Source: Octopus sinensis
Lineage: Eukaryota
DNA length: 64,000 nucleotides
Assembly: GCF_006345805.1 (NCBI RefSeq)
Contig: NC_043002.1
Span: 99,138,001-99,202,000, forward strand
Direction of reading: 5' to 3'
Both the position numbers and the translations under genes were made by a program. Each line of letters begins with the position of its first letter. Position 1 is the first letter of the stretch. The notes under the pieces are model-generated. The model was given only the letters and a program-made list of their open reading frames with translations, did no database searches and was not told the DNA's origin. Shown here one piece after another: positions 7,440 to 61,119 of this stretch.

Positions 7440-7529
7440 TTGACAAGAGCGAGAAAAAAAACATCAAAACGTCAATAGCTTATGCTCCATAGTGACCCAA
7501 GGTCTGAAGAATAAACATATATACATACA

Positions 7530-7562
<33 letters not shown>

Positions 7563-9837: not shown

Positions 9838-9995
9838 TGACAAGAGCGAGAAAAAAAACGTCAAAACGTCAATAGCTTATGCTCCATAGTGACCCAAGGT
9901 CTGAAGAATAAACATATATACCTACATACATACATACATACATACATATATGCTTACACACACACACCACACACACACACACACACAGATATATA
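9838..9995 (+). repeat. Local duplicate, copy 2
   Basis: Matches 7440-7600. Confidence 0.85.
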
Positions 9996-9999
9996 TATA

Positions 10000-10675
10000 T
10001 AATTATTAGCGACAGAAACAGTATTAATACCAAGGCAATCCTTATATCTGACTTTGGAATTGAGAAACCTTGAGAACTCCTCTCATATAGTCGCATGGTG
10101 CTTAAAAAGAAACTTATCGACAATATCGCGTTTTCTTTTATGTATCCTTTTATGCATCATGCCTCCATATGAAAGGACCTCTCAATGTGTATAACGAGGC
10201 ATTCGATGGTCTATCAAAGCAATTATTAGCAACAGAACTAGTATTGGTACAAAAAGCAATCTTTTTTTTTATCCAACTTAACGTAGGTATGTTGATGTTC
10301 TAGCAAAATACCTACGTTAAGTTGGATAAAAGATTGCATTTATGTATCAATACTAATTCTGCTGCTAATGATTTGTTTTAATAAACGTTTAGTTTATTTC
10401 TAACATTAGTGCCTGAATAGTGACTGCAATTCTATTTATCGTTGACAGTGAGGTTTGGCTAGTATACGGCGAGCGGACAGCTGTCAATGAAGAGACGAAG
10501 TGCGTCGAAATCCTGTGATCTATCAATCCAAGCGCTCAGAGCAGACGATTCTCGTCTGTCAACAATATAAATATATGTACTTTTCTGCACCATTCGTCCA
10601 TCTGTGATGTCTTCTCAAAGCAAGTACCACACTAGTCAGCGTTCGAACAAAACATCGACATTCAGTTGGATATAT
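10000..10675. mobile_element. Fold-back repeat with a decayed hammerhead motif (Penelope-pLTR-like)
   Basis: Inverted arms about 10222-10290 and 10307-10375 (ttttatccaacttaacgtaggtat/atacctacgttaagttggataaaa); aTGAAGA-gacg-aagtg-cgtc-GAAA-tcctgtga-TC at 10487-10520. Confidence 0.5.
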
Positions 10676-21093: not shown

Positions 21094-21266
21094 ATATATA
21101 TAGAGTGGTTGTATACTGTCAACATAACGTGACATTCCCGTAAGGGAATTACACCACCGCAGTTTAGCCCTAGGAAGCATCGACGCTTCTTGTCGACTTT
21201 GACACATTTCCTGTGTCCTTATACTTGCGAAGGGGAGGCAAGCACCCCCTCGAGCTAGGATTCACA

Positions 21267-21313
21267 CCTGAGGACATGCATGTTTCTGGGTCTTAACCCG
21301 TCATCAGCCCAGG
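21267..21313 (-). ncRNA. Minimal type I hammerhead ribozyme
   Basis: cctggg-CTGATGA-c gggt taag accc a-GAAA-catgcatg-TC-ctcagg: 6-bp helix I, palindromic helix III ACATGCATGT, GUC cleavage triplet. Confidence 0.8.
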
Positions 21314-21330
21314 ATAGTGAGATCTGCTGA

Positions 21331-23014
21331 TTGAAATCTTTATTATAGGCACAATGGCCCGAATGAAGAGGGGACATAACAATACAATACACAGGACATG
21401 GGGTACATATAACAAAAATACAGAAAGGATGATATGAAATGAAATATTAATAATGAATTAAATGAAATGGCTTACGAGCCCCCCAAAACTCGCAGTTTCA
21501 TTTACAATTACAATTGTACTATCTGGGGCGTTCGTCAGTAATGTAAGCGAGTAATTCATCCTGTTCTATAACGCTGGGCAAACTGTCATATCGAACGTAG
21601 TGCGCTATGCACACAGCTGTATTTGAAAACAAATTTATTAATTTATTTACCGTCTCTTTATCCACAATTGCAGCCTTTATTTGGTTATGTATATCTTCGG
21701 GTTCAATTTCACTCTCGTTAGATTTTTTCATTATCGCTAATTTTTTCTCAATTTTTTTATCCTTTTTGTACAACATTACAGCTTTGAGATTTTTTTCCTT
21801 TTGGTCTTCCTCCTTCCTTGCATGTTTTCTGACATTCTTCCACTTCTGGTGACCATTTATTCGTTTCCTCCCACGTTGAACCTTCACTCACTTTCGTTGC
21901 TGTATCTCTCCCTTCGTGCGTTCGATCCTCTGTCTCGTCGGCAGACTTCTGTTTAGGTTTTTTTCTTTTTGGGGTCTTTGGGTGGTGATTCCACCCGTGT
22001 TTGCTTTCTATCCTCTTTTTCTTCTGTTCTTTCCTTTTCTTTCTCCTTCACCAACTCGTCACCAATTTCCACAGTATCTGTTGTCACGATTTCCTCTTCC
22101 GCGTGCAATTCCACAGTCTCCTTTTCTAACTCATCTGTCAAAGTCTCCATTCCTTCCTCCAGTGTTATCATCTTCTCTTGTATTTGTCTTTGGGGACACA
22201 CATCCTTCATGTGCCCTCTGCTCCTACATTTATAACACGCTGGAGGGCTCCCCTCCACCACGACTCTCAGTCGTATCTCATCGGGGAACACCAACTCCTC
22301 CGGGATGTTATACAAATCTGGCATGGTTATGTGGACCGAAACTTGCACCGCATAACCCCACCAGTTTATTTCTTTCGACTTTTCCACCTTAAGAATGTCC
22401 ACGCTCTCTTTAGAGTTGTAGATTATTGCAGCTACTATTGTTTCGGTATCAAGTTCCAGTGAGATTTTGCTTATTCGTATCCTCACTGCTCTTTTTCCAC
22501 AATAACTAGGAAGTAAAACCCATTTTCCGATTTTAACACTGTCGTTGCGTTTCTCTTCGCTTCGTCTTCATTTTCAAAACGAATGTCTACCGTAGCGTAT
22601 TTTCTACCTGTATTGTAGAAGGTAGTTCTTCTTTTAATTTCCTGTAGACATTTCTCAATCTCTTCCACCTCTGCTACTTCTATTCTCTTTGAGACCACAT
22701 TCCAAGTTCTGTATGTTATGACTTTTTTCTCTGCTTCTTTCACTTCGTCTTCAGGTGGTGTAACCCTCAGACAGTCACCTTCCTTCTTGAAGCTGTCGTA
22801 GTATTTCCTCAAATTTTCCTTCTCGACAATTATTTCTTCCAACTGTAATTCGTTCGCAGCCAGGCCTTTGCCTGCTGCTCCCGCATAAGTTTGGGCTTGC
22901 ATACCCAACGAAAAATCCAACAATTCAACACGACGCAACAGTTTCCAACAACAAAAATCAACAAAATCCAACTCACAACCGCAATACAAAATAACCGACA
23001 CGAACACTTCCAAG
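21331..23014 (-). mobile_element. ORF1-only (half-LINE, HAL1-like) non-autonomous retroelement #1
   Basis: TSD tag(t/c)gagatctgctga at 21315-21330 and 23015-23030; AATAAA on minus at 21339-21344; only an ORF1-like reading frame, with no room for EN/RT. Confidence 0.8.
21519..22902 (-). pseudogene. Frameshifted Tx1/L1-type ORF1 (RRM-like region, CCHC zinc knuckle, charged linker, C-terminal domain)
   Basis: ORFs 22483-23013, 21953-22486 and 21519-21887 join; MQAQTYAGAA N-terminus, GRKYATVDIRF, VLLPSYCGKR across the frameshift, CYKCRSRGHMKDVC knuckle. Confidence 0.8.
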
Positions 23015-23148
23015 TAGCGAGATCTGCTGAGTGAGATGCCTGTCTAGCCTTCGCAAATATATATATTTACAGTGAAATCTATTCACTGGTCACCGTAATT
23101 GGAAATATTAAATTTCTAAATGTCTCAAAGAGACATGAGCGGTGGTGG

Positions 23149-23538
23149 ATGGATGGAAGCACTCCGTCGGTTACGACGACGAGGGTTCCGGTTGATCCGA
23201 ATCAACGGAACAGCCTGCTCGTGAAATTAACGTGTAAGTGGCTGAACACTCCACAAACACGTGTACCCTTAACGTAGTTCTCGGGGATATTCAGCGTGAC
23301 ACAGGGAGTGACAAGGCCGGCCCTTTGAAATACAGGTACAACAGAAACAGGAAGTAAGAGTGAGAGAAAATTGTGGTGAAAGAGTACAGCAGGGATCACC
23401 ACCATCCCCTGCCGGAGTCTCGTGGAGCTTTAGGCGTTTTCGTTCAATAAACACTCACAACGCCCGGTCTGGGAATTGAAACCGCGATCCTATGACCGCG
23501 AGTCCGCTGCCCTAACCACTGGGTCATTGCGCCTCCAC
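23149..23538 (-). mobile_element. tRNA-derived SINE family B, full length
   Basis: TSD gag(c/t)ggtggtgg at 23137-23148 and 23541-23552. Confidence 0.92.
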
Positions 23539-23900
23539 AAGAGTGGTGGTGGGGCGATAGAGTGGTTGTATACTGTCAACATGACGTGAATTAATTTCCA
23601 CTGTACCTTTATGCGGCAATCTTTAATTTCGGTATCATTTCACATGCAACATCTTAGTTATGGTTCACATAAAACCTTTTAAAAACTTCCAGTTTGGAGG
23701 AATTAACATCAACAGGATATCTTATATCACACACCTCGTCCTTATACTTCATGGAAGATCACTCGAACTTTTCACACCATGAAATCCTCGAACCAAGTAA
23801 ATTCTTGTATTTTTATTTTCCTTTCTTCTTCGAGTTTTTGCATGGATTCTTTTGCGTAGAGACTTAATTACATTTGGGATGCTAAACAGAATATATATAT

Positions 23901-30880: not shown

Positions 30881-30924
<44 letters not shown>

Positions 30925-30930
<6 letters not shown>

Positions 30931-31325
30931 ATAATAAAGGGCAAAATCAATTGATTATTAATTAATTTCACCAAGTGGTGTTCAGTATGTAAAAGGACCA
31001 TTCAAGGTATATTCAAAATATAGGGCTCAGTAAAATAATTTACTTTACCACATACTGAATTTTTAGAAATAGCAGCCAAAAAGTTTTTTTAGCCATTTCT
31101 ACTACTTTAAGAAAAGTCTCCCAGATAGTGTTTACTCAAAAATAATTCACGTAGATGTGGAGGGAAAGCAGCAAGATATCACATGTACAAAGATTATTTG
31201 AGACGCTCAGGTTTCTAGATTAGTCGAATTAAAACTCGACATTTCTTTCGTCAGCTCAACATTTCTTAATTTGGATTTCTAAAAATGTCAGTATGTGGTA
31301 AAGTAAATTATTTTACTGAACCCTA
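30925..31325 (-). mobile_element. Diverged relative of the 37.4-38.7 kb HHR repeat, with an internal inversion and a decayed HHR (about 31196-31259)
   Basis: Homologous blocks (ttcagtatg..gtaa..tattttact; ttgaatggtcc..catactgaacac); ttgag-CTGACGA-aaga..tcta-GAAA-c..ctcaa; inverted repeat 31028-31070 vs 31275-31318. Confidence 0.7.
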
Positions 31326-31945
31326 ATTATATAACGTAATATATATATATATATATATATAATATATGTGTGTGTATGTGGGATGGGGTGGGGTGATTGT
31401 GGGGGTGGGCGTGAATACATATATATATATTTATATATATATATATATATGTATAAATGTATGTATGTGTAGGTGTGTGTGTATGTAGTGTGCGTATGTA
31501 AGTATGCATGGGTATATCTGTGCATTTATGCGTGTGAAGGTGATTATTTTACGGAACCGTAAAGAATCTGCCATACAGTAATCACTTCGTCTACGCACTC
31601 TGAGTTTCAATCGCTCACAGATCGATTTTGACTTTTATTCTTTCATTCTTTTATTCTTATGGAATCGATAAACAAGTACCATATTGTACTAGAATATGTT
31701 CTTCTCTCTCTCTCTCTCTCTCTCTCCTCTCTCTCCCTCATTAGCTTTCACTCTCCTTCTCCCACTCTCTCTCTCTCTCACTCATTCTTTCCCTCACACT
31801 TTATCTCTTTGTCTTTCTTTCGGAGAAATAATCCGCTGTAGTCACATCCAGAATGTGATGTTCCATCAAATTTGAAAATGGCCATTACACATTATTTATA
31901 GCAAAAGAGTATCTTACTACTCTATCAAGCGGTTGAGGTACCTAA

Positions 31946-37373: not shown

Positions 37374-37868
37374 AAGGAAAACTTTAGGAACATTTCATGA
37401 TAGAGCTACAATATTTTATAATAAACTTTTGTGAGTTGAATTAAGCAAAAACTATATATGAGAGAGATTTTCTTTAAGTATTAGAAATAGCTTTAAAAAG
37501 TTTTTTAGCTGCTATTTCTAATGAGTTCAGTATGCGGCAAAGTAATTTATTTTACTAAGCCCTTTTATAATGTAATAATTTGAATTCGCCTTGAATGGTC
37601 CCTTTGCATACTGAACACTTTGTGAAATTGATTAATAATTAATTAATTTTGCCCTCAATTGTTGAAATTATAATTACCCTCTGATTAATGCTTCGGATTT
37701 TACCGAAATAAGCATAGTGTTTGATGATTTTAACCCCCGCTGGTGGAAAGGGGAGAACAGAGATTCTTCGCTTGCTTATTTGAATTTGTTGGCACTGTTA
37801 GTTACGAGCAGATCTTCGAAAGGTATGTTCTTATTTTCAGTGTTTCCAAATCCAAACCAAGGAATTTC

Positions 37869-37920
37869 TGAGCTGATGATAGAAGTGTTGTTTTGACTAA
37901 TCTTGAAACGTACGTTCTCA
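37869..37920 (+). ncRNA. Minimal type I hammerhead ribozyme
   Basis: tgag-CTGATGA-t aga..tct t-GAAA-cgtacg-TT-ctca; palindromic helix III ACGTACGT. Confidence 0.75.
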
Positions 37921-38408
37921 AATAACCTTAGCATTTGATTTTTCGATGTCCTTACCCCCAAACTTGTGAGTTGAATTAAGCAAACACTATATATGAGAGA
38001 GATTTTCTTTAAGTATGAAATAGCTTTAAAAAGTTTTTTAGCTGCTATTTCTAATGATTCAGTATGCGGCAAAGTAATTTATTTTACTAAGCCCTTTTTA
38101 TATAATGTAATAATTTGAATTCGCCTTGAATGGTCCCTTTGCATACTGAACACTTGGTGAAATTGATTAATAATTAATTAATTTTGCCCTCAATTGTTGA
38201 AATTATAATTAATCTCCCTCTGATTAATGCTTCGGATTTTACCGAAATAAGCATAGTGTTTGATGATTTTAACCCACGCTGGTGGAAAGGGGAGAACAGA
38301 GATTCTTCGCTTGCTTATTTGAATTTGTTGGCACTGTTAGTTACGAGCAGATCTTCGAAAGGGTATGTTCTTATTTTCAGTGTTTCCCAATCCAAACCAA
38401 GGAATTTC

Positions 38409-38460
38409 TGAGCTGATGATAGAAGTGTTGTTTTGACTAATCTTGAAACGTACGTTCTCA
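38409..38460 (+). ncRNA. Minimal type I hammerhead ribozyme (tandem copy)
   Basis: Identical to 37869-37920. Confidence 0.75.
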
Positions 38461-38743
38461 AATAACCTTAGCATTTGATTTTTCGATGTCCTTACCCCCA
38501 ACTTTTTTGTGAGTCGAATTAAGCAAACACTATATATGAGAGAGATTTTCTTTAAGTATTAGAAATAGCTTTAAAAAAGTTTTTTAGCTGCTATTTCTAA
38601 TGAGTTCAGTATGCGGCAAAGTAATTTATTTTACTAGCCCTTTTATATAATGTAATAATTTGAATTCGCCTTGAATGGTCCCTTTGCATACTGACACTTG
38701 GTGAAATTGATTAATAATTAACTAATTTTGCCCTCAATTGTTG

Positions 38744-38821
<78 letters not shown>

Positions 38822-40080: not shown

Positions 40081-40235
40081 AAAAAGGAAGGATTCATTGA
40101 ACAAGGTATTTGAATACACACACACATAATTGAAAAACAAGAGGACAGTGGAAATTTATTCACATCCAAAACTTTTTTATTAAAAAGATTTCTATATAGG
40201 CGCAGGAGTGACTGTGTGGTAAGTAGCTTGCTTAC

Positions 40236-42298
40236 CCAGAATGCAACACTAGTTGGTCTGGACTGTTACAGTGAGCAGATGTGAGTTTCGGCTCCGCGAA
40301 TAGAAAAAAAGAACAAAAAGAAAAATTGTCAATTATGGCTCGCTATAACGAGCAAAATACTGGTTTCTCATCACCGTAACGGTGAATTGAGAAATTTTTT
40401 GAAAATTTTTCTTGTGAATTCTAGTGGGCGTATCTCGCCAGAAAAATAAGAATAAGCCATTTGGATTACCTTTTTGGAGTACCTTTTTGGAGTATTATAC
40501 AAAGGATTCCCTGTCTGTGCTATTTGTGAGGTTTTTCCTTTACTTTTCTCTTCTATTTTTTCTTTCTTTCTAAATTTTGGTTCATTCTTTTCATTATTTT
40601 AATTTCAGTTTCCTCCCCTCCTCTTTTATTTTGTTTTATTTTTATTCGGTTTAATTTTTTGGCAGAATGTCTTTTGAACTACTTTTGAACTGTTTTTTGA
40701 CATGGCAGAGAAGGAACTTAAAAAGAAAAACTCTGTCTTAGAGTGGGAAATTAACCCGCCTAAGCAATGGTTAAAAGATATGGAGGAGAAGATGATGGTA
40801 CTTAGAACGTATTCTAAAGTTCTTAATTCCATCACCGTCTTCCCAAAACAAGTCATAAAAAATGAACTTTTGAAAAAAGAACATTTGTCCTCTGTAAAAT
40901 ATATATCCCGTGGTGTAAAACATGCAACCGTATGGTTGCTGTTTGACAACGGGGAAAAGGCTCGCCAGTTTGCGAGTCAGCCTTTAGAAAGCAAGGAAAT
41001 TCTGTTTCTCCCGTCATATTGCGGAAGAAAATTAATACGAGCCTGGGTATGTGGGCTCCCCCCGGGCACCGAAGCGGATTGGATTGAAGATACTGTCCGA
41101 CGGGGACTGGGGGATGGCGGTCCCAGGCTCTTAAATGTAAGAGTATTGCCGGCGTTCGATTGGGAAGTGTCAAAAGCGATTTTGACCCTGTGGACCCCAT
41201 CGGCCGCAACAGAACTGGTTTTTCCAGATTTCTTGAAAATGGCTGGCTGCAGGCATCCGGTGATACTTGAGGGATGTCCCCCAAAGTGTCACTTGTGCCT
41301 GCAGCCAGGCCACATTAAAAGGAACTGCCCCCAGGACCATGGTATGGTCCTGGAACAGTCACTACATGCCATCACCCCTACCCGGTCAAAGGGAGAGGTG
41401 GATGTGGTCGAGGAGGCTTCAGCCTCCTCAACTCAAAAAAATTAAAAGGAGAAGGCGGGCAACAATAGTTGCCCGCCGAAGGAACCTAAGGCTTCGGAGG
41501 CGGGGGAGAGTCTCGGACAAAGCGGAAGAGCTCCACTCTCCCGAAGCCAGGAAGAAAAGAAAAAAATGATGGAAGAAGAACGGGTCATCTCAGCGGGGAG
41601 ATGATGTGCCGACTGCATGCCGAAGTTGTGCCACCCACGGTGGAAGAAATCACCCCCACCCTTAAAGATGATCAATTAATTACATTTTTCTACAAGGGCG
41701 GGGAGGTGGAAAAAATAGTAGAAGAACATAAAGAAACAGTAGATATGCCCTTCACACGGGATCCCGAATGGCCTCCGCAGATAGCTGTGGAGGTCATAAG
41801 TTTTCCCTTGTGGGAAAGGCTTAAAGGATTTGGGGAGGAGTGTCGCATATGGCCGGGTGGCCCTAACACGACTTACATGTCCTACATGAGTGAGGCATGG
41901 GAAATGGCGGGATACAGGAACTGAAGCGGCATTGAAGATAATGATGAATATATCGATGGATATATCGAAGAGTAGGAGGTGAAAGACCCTCGTTACTGGG
42001 TTTGAAACCTCATCTTATTGGATTATTTTGTAGTGGTTTATAACCTCAATTTTGTGCTTTAAGAAAGAAAAAAAAAGAAAACATGTTAAGTAAGAGGTTT
42101 TAGTGCCTCCTCCTTGTAAGAGGTTTGAAACCTCATATTGATTAAAAAAAAAAAGAAAATATGTTTTCGAGAAAAATCCAATCGGCGGGTGTTGTTTTTC
42201 GTCTCTCATTTATTCATTATATTTCATTTTCATTCATTAATGTATTTGTACAGCCCGCAAAGCTCTTTGTATTGTCTATATGACAAATCTGTGAAATA
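40236..42298 (+). mobile_element. ORF1-only (half-LINE, HAL1-like) non-autonomous retroelement #2
   Basis: TSD aagtag(c/t)ttgcttac at 40221-40235 and 42299-42313; AATAAA at 42295-42300 abuts the TSD; no ORF2 remnants. Confidence 0.82.
40702..41924 (+). pseudogene. Frameshifted Tx1/L1-type ORF1 with CCHC zinc knuckle
   Basis: ORF 40702-41445 has GVKHATVWLLF, LFLPSYCGRK and CHLCLQPGHIKRNC; it continues after frameshifts into 41601-41924. Confidence 0.82.
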
Positions 42299-43089
42299 AA
42301 GTAGTTTGCTTACTTACCACATGGTTCCGGGTCCAGTCCTACTGCATGGCACCTTAAGCAAATGTCCTCTATTATAGCCTTGGCCCGACCAAACCCTTGT
42401 GAGTGGATTTGGTAGACGGAAACTGAAAGAAGCCGTTGTGTGTGTGCGCGCGTGTGTGTATGTGTGTATATGTTTGTGTGTCTGTGTTTGTCCACCCAAC
42501 ATCACTTGACAACCGATGCTGGTGTGTTTACGTCCCCGTAACTTAGCAGTTCGGCAAAAGAGACCGATAGAATAAGTACTAGTCTTACAAAGAAGAAGGC
42601 TTGGGATCGAATTGCTCGACTAAAGGCGGTGATCCAGCATGGCCTCGGTCAACTGACTGAAAGAAGTATAAGAGTAAAAGAGTATAGATATATAACAATG
42701 AACAACATATTTTTCTGCGGCAGCACATTTTTCTGCACATTGCTCTGTAAGCAATTATGCATTCTGGTCACTGCAGTTTCATAAAGGGTCTGTCGCGATG
42801 TTTTCAAAATGAAAAACAAGCTTCCTGCGTTGGTATTCAGTAGAGGGTGATAGCGTTTCTTTTTAAACCGAATTTAATTTTGGTCTTACAATCACCTCTA
42901 CTGGTATTACAGTTGAATCTTGGTCTTAGAATGTTTATTTATATTAAAATTAATTGTAGCAGTGTTGTTCACATTTTACTGTATGGAGTATATTATTTAT
43001 TCAGAGGTATTTCACTTAATTTGGGTGTATATCTTCAATTAATATTATTGTTATTATTATAATAATTATATTTATTAGTATTATATGCT

Positions 43090-43406: not shown

Positions 43407-43737
43407 ATCTGCGTTGCAATAACTTGGATGCTTTATCAGGGTTGAAGAAGCGATGATTTTCAAGAACACTATGACAATATCAGCACCATAACGAAGAAAT
43501 CATTTATTCATTCATTTCATTCACTAGTATATATGTCACTCCATCTGTAGAAATCCACTCTTCAACTCCTTCCAGCATCATCTCGTTGGTACTGGAATAT
43601 TTTGGAGGCAGAAGACATTATAGACCGTCGTACTAAGATTGCAACTGCGGCTAAAAAGCATTTTTCTTTTATTCGGAATACGAGGGTTGGCTGAAAAATC
43701 CATAGGCTGACTATGAAGGAGTGATGCTTGAGCATCA

Positions 43738-44361
43738 TTTCAACTCTTCTTATTCATAAGTATATATAAATTTCAACTCTTCTTATTCATAAGTATATAT
43801 AAATTTCAACTCATCTTATTCATAAGTATATATAAATTTCAACTCTTCTTATTCATAAGTATATATAAATTTCAACTCTTCTTATTCATAAGTATATATA
43901 AATTTTAACTCTTCTCATTCATAAGTATATATAAATTTCAACTCTTGTTATTCATAAGTATATATAAATTTCAACTCTTCTTATTCATAAGTATATATAA
44001 ATTTCAACTCATCTTATTCATAAGTATATATAAATTTCAACTCTTCTTATTCATAAGTATATACAAATTTTAACTCTTCTTATTCATAAGTATATATAAA
44101 TTTCAACTCTTCTTATTCATAAGTATATACAAATTTCAACTCTTCTTATTCATAAGTATATATAAATTTTAACTCTTCTTATTCATAAGTATATATAAAT
44201 TTCAACTCATCTTATTCATAAGTATATATAAATTTCAACTCTTCTTATTCATAAGTATATACAAATTTTAACTCTTCTTATTCATAAGTATATATAAATT
44301 TCAACTCTTCTTATTCATAAGTATATATAAATTTCAACTCTTCTTATTCATAAGTATATAT
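43738..44361. repeat. Minisatellite, 19 x 33 bp (tttcaactcttcttattcataagtatatataaa)
   Basis: Units start every 33 bp from 43738 to 44332. Confidence 0.97.
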
Positions 44362-47461: not shown

Positions 47462-47510
<49 letters not shown>

Positions 47511-47511
<1 letters not shown>

Positions 47512-48368
47512 TATAAGAGAGCGACCACTATGTGGTCTACTCTAGCACTAAAAATAGATCCATTATTATTTTATTAATAGCGAAACAATTGTCCCGAACA
47601 AATTTGAATTTTTGTTATGTTCATTTACCCTGTCTGCGCCAGTAGTTGTGCTAATATTCACCGGATACATTTTTTATGTAGCTGAAGCCCAATGGATCTA
47701 TTTTTAGTGCTAGAGTAGACCACATAGTGGTCGCTCTCTTATATTTATATATAAAATGTATGAAAATCCGGGTTTCATATGCACTAAGCCACTAGGTGTT
47801 AAATGGATGTACTATTAAATTAGTATAAAAAAATTTCTCACCCTTATTGGTTGATTGTAACTATGCTACATTTAATTTTGGATGTAGTATCTGTTTCAGT
47901 GCGTGTTGGCGGGCTAAGACAGGGGCACTTAAACTATAGCAGCGAATGCAATTGGCTGAACCACACGTGCGTTTGTCGTGGTGGTGAAGTCTAGGGTGCG
48001 GTCGAGTTAATTGTATTCTGAATGGGTTCGGCTGAGGAGCTACAAATAAATGTATATTATGTGAGTAAAATTACATAATTTATTAATTTATTAATAGCGA
48101 AACAATTGTCCCGAACTAATTTGAATTTTTGTTATGTTTATTTGCCCTGTCTGCGCCAGTAGTTGTGCTAATATTCACCGGAGACATTTTTTTATGTGGC
48201 TGAAGCCCAATGGATCTATTTTTAGTGCTAGAGTAGACCACATAGTGGTCGCTCGCTTATATTTATATATAAAATGTATGAAAATCCGGGTATCATATGC
48301 ACTAAGCCACTAGGTGTTAAATGGATGTACTATTAAATTAGTATAAAAATGTCCCACCCTTATTGGTT
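47511..48368 (+). mobile_element. Retrozyme/Penelope-pLTR-like element: about 1.55 x 517-bp units plus a 5' inverted segment, within (TA)n
   Basis: GAAAcaattgtcccgaac at 47582 and 48099 (period 517); 47511-47564 is the reverse complement of about 47691-47744. Confidence 0.85.
48026..48116 (+). ncRNA. Minimal type I hammerhead ribozyme with a canonical core
   Basis: gttcgg-CTGAGGA-gcta..tagc-GAAA-caattg-TC-ccgaac: perfect 6-bp helix I, G10.1-C11.1 pair, palindromic helix III ACAATTGT, GUC. Confidence 0.9.
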
Positions 48369-48382
48369 TATATATATATATA

Positions 48383-59337: not shown

Positions 59338-59716
59338 GATATATATTATATAAATGGAATAAAAACGCAATAGAGGGTATTAAAACGTTCGGACAGATAG
59401 ATGATACAAAGGTGGACAAGAGAAACAACAATTAGAAGCACAGGTAAAAACGATGAATCTTCTTGGCTTCCTTCATCACTCAAGTCCCAAAAGTCACGAC
59501 CATTTCGGGCAGTTACGCTTGAGATGGATCGATCTGGTTACCTGCCAAAAACTCTAGGCTAAGAGCACTAGACTCGTTTGTAAGAAAGCTAGCGAATATG
59601 TACGGCAACAAAGACAAAAGGAAAATAAATAAACAAAAAGCGCAGAGTATGGTACACAATTACGAATACAAACAAGAAATAACAACAGGCGTCTTTCGAC
59701 TGAGAAAGAATCAAAT
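59122..59716 (-). repeat. Left arm of an inverted duplication of about 600 bp (right arm about 61400-61978)
   Basis: Reverse-complement match that includes the (TA)n tracts. Confidence 0.9.
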
Positions 59717-61098
59717 CGATGCTTGCTACAGGAGGACTGGTAACCATTACAATTTGTAGCGGCGAAAGGTCTGGACGTTGTTTTCTGAGGCTGACCAAAG
59801 AATTTTTATTTTTAGATATAAATGATGTACTCAAGTGTAGTTATGTTTTTAGCTTGTGCTTTTTCCATGATCATACGTGAGTATTTTATTTATATCCCAT
59901 CGAAATTTCTACTGAAGAAGGAATATATCTTTTTTTATAAGATTAAGTCCGAAATTGATTCATATAGATGATAACGAAATTTAAATTTTCTAAAGGTTAG
60001 TTGCCCGTTTTCAGTTTCAATTTTCCTGTAACAAGCGGATTATAAGTGGATAAAACAGTGTATTTGGCTTTAGAATAACCCTCTTTAGCCCTTAATTATA
60101 TGATGTATATTGCAACCGTAACGGTTTTTTTAAATATACTGCCCACGCTTCCTGATGAATTCCTTTGCTGTAGAGTAAGGGACTTCATCCTATATTGCTT
60201 AGCTAGTAAACTCGATGCTTGCTACAGGAGGACTGGTAACCATTACAATTTGTAGCGGCGAAAGGTCTGGACGTTGTTTTCTGAGGCTGACCAAAGAATT
60301 TTTATTTTTCAGATATAATGATGTACTCAAGTGTAGTTATGTTTTTACTTGTGCTTTTTCCATGATCATACGTGAGTATTTTATTTTATTTATATCCCAT
60401 CGAAATTTCTACTGAAGAAGAATATATCTTTTTTTATAAGATTAAGTCCGAAATTGATTCAATATAGAGATAACGAAATTTAAATTTTCTAAAGGTTAGT
60501 TGCCCGTTTTCAGTTTCAATTTTCCTGTAACAAGCGGATTATAAGTGGATAAAACAGTTGTATTTGGCTTTAGAATAACCCTCTTTAGCCCTTAATTATA
60601 TGATGTATATTGCAACCGTAACGGTTTTTTTAAATATACTGCCCACGCTTCCTGATGAATTCCTTTGCTGTAGAGTAAGGGACTTCATCCTATATTGCTT
60701 AGTAGTAAACTCGATGCTTGCTACAGGAGGACTGGTAACCATTACAATTTGTAGCGGCGAAAGGTCTGGACGTTGTTTTCTGAGGCTGACCAAAGAATTT
60801 TTATTTTTAGATATAAATGATGTACTCAAGTGTAGTTATGTTTTTAGCTTGTGCTTTTTCCATGATCATACGTGAGTATTTTATTTATATCCCATCGAAA
60901 TTTCTACTGAAGAAGGAATATATCTTTTTTTATAAGATTAAGTCCGAAATTGATTCAATATAGAGATAACGAAATTTAAATTTTCTAAAGGTTAGTTGCC
61001 CGTTTTCAGTTTCAATTTTCCTGTAACAAGCGGATTATAAGTGGATAAAACAGTGTATTTGGCTTTAGAATAACCCTCTTTAGCCCTTAATTATATGA
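59716..61098 (+). mobile_element. Tandem array of about 2.8 x 497-bp non-coding units, one hammerhead per unit (retrozyme-like)
   Basis: tcgatgcttgctacagg at 59716, 60212 and 60711; CTGAAGA at 59912, 60412 and 60907. Confidence 0.85.
60900..60967 (+). ncRNA. Type I hammerhead ribozyme (best of three tandem copies)
   Basis: atttcta-CTGAAGA-a gga..tcc-GAAA-ttgattcaa-TA-tagagat; near-palindromic helix III ATTGA-T-TCAAT, 7-bp helix I. Confidence 0.72.
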
Positions 61099-61119
61099 TA
61101 TATATATATATATATATGT

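Follow-up and report, generated by a model that had tools for sequence, protein, structure and literature searches.

A 353-bp hammerhead ribozyme unit of Octopus sinensis, bounded at both ends by a 33-bp tail and probably mobilised by a Penelope-like element

According to a 2020 review, the retrozyme repeats of animals show no conserved motif that reveals the retrotransposon mobilising them (PMC7761336). In a 2026 preprint, Penelope-like elements (PLEs) were argued to play this role, on the basis of co-occurrence and pLTR homology and with the mechanism left open (bioRxiv 10.64898/2026.07.22.740005); the descent of retrozymes from PLE pLTRs is already argued there and is not new here. PLE insertions are described as carrying a “tail” of 30-40 bp at either end (PMC8557442). 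In in vitro work on the Poseidon element of Anolis, the tail corresponded to the sequence between two internal start sites of reverse transcription on unprocessed linear RNA, the targets were AT-rich, and insertion proceeded without the need for ribozyme cleavage (PMC11167929). The (TA)n sequence is reported as the preferred target of Hydra and many Naiad PLEs. Our searches of the open-access literature revealed neither a paper on retrozymes in cephalopods nor one on retrozyme monomers bounded by tails, and the word “ribozyme” is absent from the accessible part of the 2026 octopus repeat paper (PMC13282606); Repbase, Dfam, or the Zenodo library of that paper may already contain such a family without a name.

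The locus described here lies in a repeat-rich window of 64,000 nucleotides of the Octopus sinensis genome (NC_043002.1, positions 99,138,001 to 99,202,000), and all positions are given in the coordinates of this window (Table 1). We consider it likely that a single copy of a retrozyme-type element is present here, with a unit of 353 nt that encodes no protein, is non-autonomous and mobilised by a PLE, and carries the tail at both ends. Its anatomy, pairing, and target context are read from the sequence, and the PLE partner, the mechanism, and the status of a family are what we infer. On the minus strand, the order is tail, 5' part, TATA/Inr-like site, hammerhead, 3' hairpins, and tail.

Table 1. 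Positions of the features of the 353-bp unit, its two tails, and the insertions nested in it
Feature	Position	Strand	Evidence
Remnant of the target, (AT)3, where a flanking SINE of another family has its 3' end	21094..21099	.	SINE-copy comparison
3' tail copy, the 3' end of the element, adjoining short (TA)n	21100..21132	-	sequence; PLE tail of 30-40 bp as described in PMC8557442 and PMC11167929
Segment A (ribozyme and 3' hairpins); 21315-21330 is the left copy of the LINE TSD	21133..21330	-	removal of insertions, folding
5' strand of the predicted 9-bp helix enclosing the tail in tandem or circular RNA	21152..21160	-	p 0.97; 17/2000 shuffles
3' arm of the predicted long helix extending hammerhead helix I	21220..21265	-	pair probabilities 0.72-1.0
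Type I hammerhead, predicted cut 3' of 21273	21267..21313	-	descriptor search; PLE hammerhead comparison
Nested insertion of ORF1-only LINE type with a frameshift and zf-CCHC; the range takes in its right TSD copy (23015-23030)	21331..23030	-	TSD, Pfam, relatives
Possible promoter: TATA-like 8-mer 23065-23058 and Inr-like TCACT 23034-23030, 23 nt apart	23030..23065	-	motif reading; PMC3846280, as described there
5' arm of the predicted long helix; pairs with 21220-21251, crosses the LINE excision point, 1-nt bulge	23031..23061	-	folding, interaction energy
Segment B; 23137-23148 is the left copy of the SINE TSD	23031..23148	-	removal of insertions, folding
3' strand of the predicted 9-bp helix, just past the tail in unit order	23139..23147	-	p 0.97; 17/2000 shuffles
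Nested SINE with a core at about 23154-23540; the range takes in its right TSD copy (23541-23552)	23149..23552	+ (as read)	TSD, window copies
Last 4 bp of the unit, between SINE TSD and 5' tail	23553..23556	-	sequence
5' tail copy, the 5' end of the element, one substitution	23557..23589	-	sequence comparison

The unit is what remains (231 + 118 + 4 = 353 bp) after the subtraction of two nested insertions, a LINE-type element of 1700 bp and a SINE of 404 bp. A first-pass annotation of this DNA had proposed the same subtraction, and in silico removal bore it out, each insertion being flanked by a TSD of its own: 16 bp for the LINE (15/16 identical) and 12 bp for the SINE (11/12 identical). The similarity around the LINE TSD (21295-21343 / 22995-23043) runs about 6 bp further on each side when one indel is allowed, and the TSD may be about 22 bp long, or the ends of the LINE and its target may share microhomology. 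Three more copies of the SINE, with identities of 86-96%, are found in the window. The ORF1 of the LINE is frameshifted and contains a zinc knuckle (Pfam zf-CCHC, E 0.0025, under the curated cut-off). It has 214 relatives at E <= 0.001, and among the 12 long ones a zinc-knuckle family was recognised in eight and an RT or endonuclease domain in none. Word-indexed searches gave no family name for this LINE, its relatives likewise being without names; its N-terminal motif alone suggests a Tx1-like affinity.

The possibility that ORF1 is an integral part of the ribozyme element, as in Chlamys-2_cBra, was rejected because ORF1 belongs to an insertion with its own TSD and because its removal restores a helix in register. 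A second ORF1-only LINE-type element, a distant relative of the nested one, is located at 40236-42298 (+) and is flanked by a TSD of 15 bp (14/15 identical, 40221-40235 / 42299-42313). This element is inserted in an ordinary SINE, which disfavours the targeting of ribozyme elements by such LINEs; we therefore give very little credence to the additional proposal that the ORF1-only LINE targets the interval between promoter and ribozyme, borrowing from it a transcription start and 3' processing.

No further copy of the 353-bp unit, or of pieces of it, was detected by BLASTN in the 64-kb window, and no copy appeared in the published supplements searched by motif. An exact 29-nt probe from the unit had no match in prokaryotic genome contigs, as expected for an animal repeat. 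The longest stop-free stretch in the unit is 68 aa, and no ORF remnant is evident. Its GC content is 0.459 (46%), slightly above the “<45%” of a retrozyme figure legend.

The two ends of the element are formed by the copies of a direct repeat of 33 bp that are 2457 bp apart, just as the first-pass annotation had reported, and are identical at 32/33 positions, with 26 nt in an exact run. The 3' end of the element lies within a TA tract, and no outer TSD is seen beyond the repeat; in other words, the locus has an AT-rich/(TA)n target without a discernible TSD, as PLE-derived elements do. When we compared the nine other matches that reach the 3' end of the flanking SINE, the 33-mer was absent after all of them (9/9), and four of the nine run into TA-rich sequence. 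The repeat lies about 140-170 nt downstream of the hammerhead cleavage site, and its edges coincide with hairpin boundaries in the predicted circular fold. With 33 bp, it falls within the 30-40 bp of PLE tail extensions, its identity as a tail being drawn from the length, position, and context of a single copy. It is best read as a PLE tail, and not as a random “0.1 extra turn” of a circle. A minisatellite that also has a period of 33 bp is present at 43737-44361 (18.9 copies), and the tail does not match it.

The ribozyme is a type I hammerhead with a helix I of 6 bp, the conserved core boxes, a helix II of 3 bp with a 6-nt loop, and a helix III of 4 bp with a 2-nt loop. A strict descriptor, which was tailored after the motif had been seen, matched it and nothing else in the window, and had no match in 200 block-shuffled windows; a relaxed descriptor gave four real matches compared with one in 100 shuffles. 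The first-pass annotation had called it one clean hammerhead. As the sole strict match it stands, but “clean” overstates it, because a C.A mismatch takes the place of G10.1-C11.1 at the base of helix II and because Rfam missed the hammerhead, at both gathering and E-value thresholds. Moreover, the minimum-energy fold of the isolated 57-mer is not a hammerhead (z 0.36), and in the circle the hammerhead fold lies 3.8 kcal/mol above the minimum. It should be mentioned that helix III is a 10-nt palindrome that can form a 10-bp self-duplex (-13.3 kcal/mol) and is thus predicted to be able to pair between two copies, as in dimer-activated ribozymes. Upstream of the ribozyme, the TATA/Inr-like pair is a possible promoter, and a rotifer pLTR is described with the same arrangement at a distance of 20 bp (PMC3846280); the evidence for a promoter is weak, TA runs being frequent in this DNA.

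Folded as a circle, the unit reaches -121.7 kcal/mol (z -5.9, 0/100 shuffles). It has the strong self-pairing of non-LTR retrozyme circles, yet two of ten control windows fold more strongly (z -8.2 and -11.1). One of these is explained, because it is a relative (30920-31341) of a 540-bp hammerhead family in the window, and the control window 10000-10352 (z -8.2) contains an internal direct repeat and a long hairpin. In the predicted circle, the ribozyme is placed at the tip of a long arm, whose two strands come from segments A and B. Segment A by itself is weakly structured (z -1.8, 14/200). When segment B is joined to it, the interaction energy is -27.8 kcal/mol (z -6.3), a value as low as this being reached in none of 534 control tiles, and the true genomic neighbour of segment A, the end of the LINE, gives 0.0 kcal/mol. 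In a cruder, intermolecular duplex test, the energy of the pairing between segments A and B was matched in 0/300 shuffles, but in 3/2138 tiles. The predicted helix across the excision point gives independent support to the LINE join and to a reconstruction that is in register. This long helix could be a relic of a PLE-type inversion and not a selected RNA structure. A further 9-bp helix, predicted to enclose the tail, is formed by the two ends of the unit and needs about 14 nt past the 3' end of the insertion, and therefore the template would have been tandem or circular.

We compared these features with the PLEs of the Hydra clade, as given in the supplement of PMC8557442. By our count by eye, a mismatch at the base of helix II occurs in 15/25 Hydra-clade families in that supplement, the basal C.A of the unit being also present in PLE-X1_cBra, and a 4-bp helix III with a 2-nt loop occurs in 6/25. 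The hammerhead of the unit lies near the 3' end, as in PLE-derived elements, at the upper edge of the Hydra range: the distance from ribozyme to 3' end is 181-214 nt versus 87-210 nt in 23/24 Hydra-clade consensi. It thus reaches or exceeds the upper limit of these, and a further 20 nt would have to be added should the tabulated position include flank. This comparison omits Penelope-18_HMa, for which the listed motif is at the 5' end. The terminal 9 nt of the unit recur exactly at the 3' terminus of the Hydra-2_Amil consensus, one of six Hydra consensi compared by eye and post hoc, and three of the nine nucleotides could be target-like. Hydra-2_Amil likewise has a TA-run upstream of its hammerhead. 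We regard this match as a lead suggested by sequence likeness, not as an assignment. By eye, the 3' end of Hydra-1_Obim differs from that of the unit, and no alignable homology to a named autonomous PLE family was found among the Hydra consensi compared. Two ribozyme motifs used as queries are absent from the accessible part of that supplement. An ORF with RT and GIY-YIG endonuclease, as expected of an autonomous PLE, is lacking at the locus, and a crude motif scan detected no PLE RT/EN in the window.

The following course of events would account for the locus. A longer-than-unit RNA would be produced, either by tandem read-through or as a circle from two hammerhead cuts in a dimer, and would fold such that the tail lies within a hairpin domain closed by the 9-bp helix. 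An RT/GIY-YIG protein of a PLE, supplied in trans, would nick a (TA)n site, and reverse transcription would start in the helix-closed domain at the 3' edge of the tail, an internal initiation like that in the PLE assay. One full unit would be copied and the product resolved at the other edge of the tail, giving a unit plus tail (1.09 units) without a TSD. The ORF1-only LINE and the SINE would have been inserted later and independently, most likely inactivating this copy. A circular RNA template is possible, a linear tandem transcript explains the same structure, and the contraction of a short array between tails would also give the same picture, because in vitro a PLE tail maps to unprocessed linear RNA with no need for ribozyme cleavage; between the two kinds of template, we lean slightly towards the linear one.

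It might be objected that an autonomous PLE has left a remnant at this one locus, its ORF having been lost through internal deletion, or through recombination that yielded a solo pLTR flanked by two tails, and that the unit never spread as a family. Solo pLTRs and optional tails are indeed described (PMC3846280), in size the unit roughly equals the 5' and 3' UTRs of a Hydra-type element combined, and it is single-copy in the 64-kb window. We nevertheless consider such an origin unlikely, since the unit folds in a self-contained and closed manner, with helices that link its 5' and 3' parts, and since no stretch above 68 aa is left that could represent the ORF. Still less probable, in our opinion, is that the 33-bp repeat is a plain long host TSD, enclosing a SINE-like insert of 320 bp that bears the ribozyme and was moved by a LINE, although some animal retrozymes are reported to have TSDs “larger than 4 bp”. 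The TSDs of the five LINE/SINE insertions examined in the window measure 8-16 bp, a range that excludes the 33-bp repeat; the 33-mer does not stand behind the other copies of the flanking SINE; its inner 3' edge is without poly(A) or a repeat tail; an element-encoded helix is predicted to enclose it; and it ends like a PLE consensus. The first-pass annotation had itself named a plain TSD among the outcomes that would overturn its reading, and the repeat behaves instead as a part of the element.

The least probable of these alternatives, and one that we think can largely be set aside, is that some RT began at an arbitrary point on a circular RNA of 353 nt and overran by chance for 33 nt, there being no fixed tail. 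In its favour, the size, GC content, and self-pairing fit the retrozyme circRNAs of 170-400 nt, and a rolling-circle model predicts cDNA of more than unit length. Against it, an overrun within the 30-40 bp range of PLEs, edges at hairpin boundaries, and a TA target are all unexpected by chance, and a lone ribozyme is unable to release a monomer on its own. The first-pass annotation had proposed that about 1.1 turns of a circular 353-nt RNA were reverse transcribed. What stands of this is a single self-paired ribozyme unit with the size and GC content of a retrozyme (z -5.9); as to the circle, a PLE tail on linear tandem RNA fits equally well. Our preferred reading is thus still that of a PLE-mobilised monomer with a tail at both ends.

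Two other families of hammerhead repeats are present in the window; both are tandem and likewise end in (TA)n, and neither resembles the 353-bp unit better than E 0.058 (BLASTN). At 59713-61105 (+), a 496-bp repeat is found in 2.8 copies (circular fold z -4.8). A well-formed hammerhead of PLE type (core 60907, with 7 bp in helix I and 5 bp in helix III) lies in the third copy, 191 nt before the (TA)n end; in copies one and two, the motif carries small deletions. This array is a better candidate for a textbook tandem retrozyme than the 353-bp locus. Just before it, at 59640-59712 (-), lies an apparent inverted 3' half of a hammerhead, by eye similar to those at inverted PLE junctions. At 37427-38751 (+), there are 2.4 copies of a repeat of about 540 bp, in which hammerhead-like motifs (37873 and 38413) show a basal U.U mismatch and a palindromic helix III; its diverged relative at 30920-31341 (-) (73-84%) is built as an inverted repeat bordered on each side by (TA)n. 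In Octopus vulgaris, 190 Penelope-like families are reported (PMC13282606). Taken together with the two tandem hammerhead families, this number suggests that PLE-derived ribozyme elements are probably common in this genome. Further repeats in the window include a direct repeat of about 85 bp (7450-7535 / 9847-9932), the copies of which are 2397 bp apart, each running into a microsatellite, with a SINE copy between them, and a repeat of about 307 bp at 47505-48371, which recurs at a spacing of 517 bp with 94% identity, is accompanied by an inverted copy of 60 bp, and gave no hammerhead core when searched.

The less ordinary feature of the 353-bp locus is the tail at both ends of a monomer, which provides testable junctions for the question of the mobilising enzyme. 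A tail-bounded monomer at (TA)n gives an exact predicted start of reverse transcription and exact predicted resolution sites, and the unit, at 353 nt, would offer a minimal substrate to the in vitro assay that already exists for PLEs. A bolder version of our reading is that the unit belongs to a true circRNA retrozyme family, with dispersed monomers cut at the two edges of the PLE tail and with the tail-enclosing helix as the RT-loading signal. We find this version rather doubtful; if true, it would be the first junction-level proof that a named, Hydra-like PLE clade reverse-transcribes a ribozyme circle.

Metazoan non-LTR retrozymes, as described by Cervera and de la Pena 2020 (PMC7229834) and Li et al. 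2026 (bioRxiv 10.64898/2026.07.22.740005), share with the unit a type I hammerhead (here a variant with the basal C.A) and a non-coding unit of 150-450 bp with strong self-pairing and a GC content of <50%, within which the 353 nt, the GC content given above, and the absence of an encoded protein all fall. The ribozyme of the axolotl retrozyme Amex2 is reported to be likewise mismatched at the base of helix II and to work better as a dimer. In contrast, non-LTR retrozymes form tandem arrays of at least two ribozyme-bearing units, whereas the locus holds one unit plus 33 bp, with no other copy in the window, and a fixed PLE tail at both ends is not among the features given for retrozymes in the accessible parts of these two sources. 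Closest in style are the pLTR and tail of the EN-positive PLEs of the Hydra clade (Craig et al. 2021, PMC8557442), described with a hammerhead about 100-200 nt from the 3' end, a basal mismatch in helix II, a 4-bp helix III, a (TA)n target, and a 30-40 bp tail, to which the terminal match to Hydra-2_Amil may be added; these PLEs carry an RT/GIY-YIG ORF and the unit does not. In the Poseidon element PAc of Anolis (Frangieh et al. 2024, PMC11167929), two internal sites of RT initiation, located in an AC-rich stem-loop downstream of the hammerhead, are reported to define the tail, and the targets are AT-rich; PAc is autonomous and its ribozyme overlaps the start of the ORF, whereas here a stop follows three codons after the equivalent ATG. 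Because the locus is not a tandem array, we file the unit, by its sequence features, as a putative PLE-derived, non-autonomous monomer of retrozyme type. It is a known kind of element, the value of which lies in junction-level evidence on the mobiliser of animal retrozymes.
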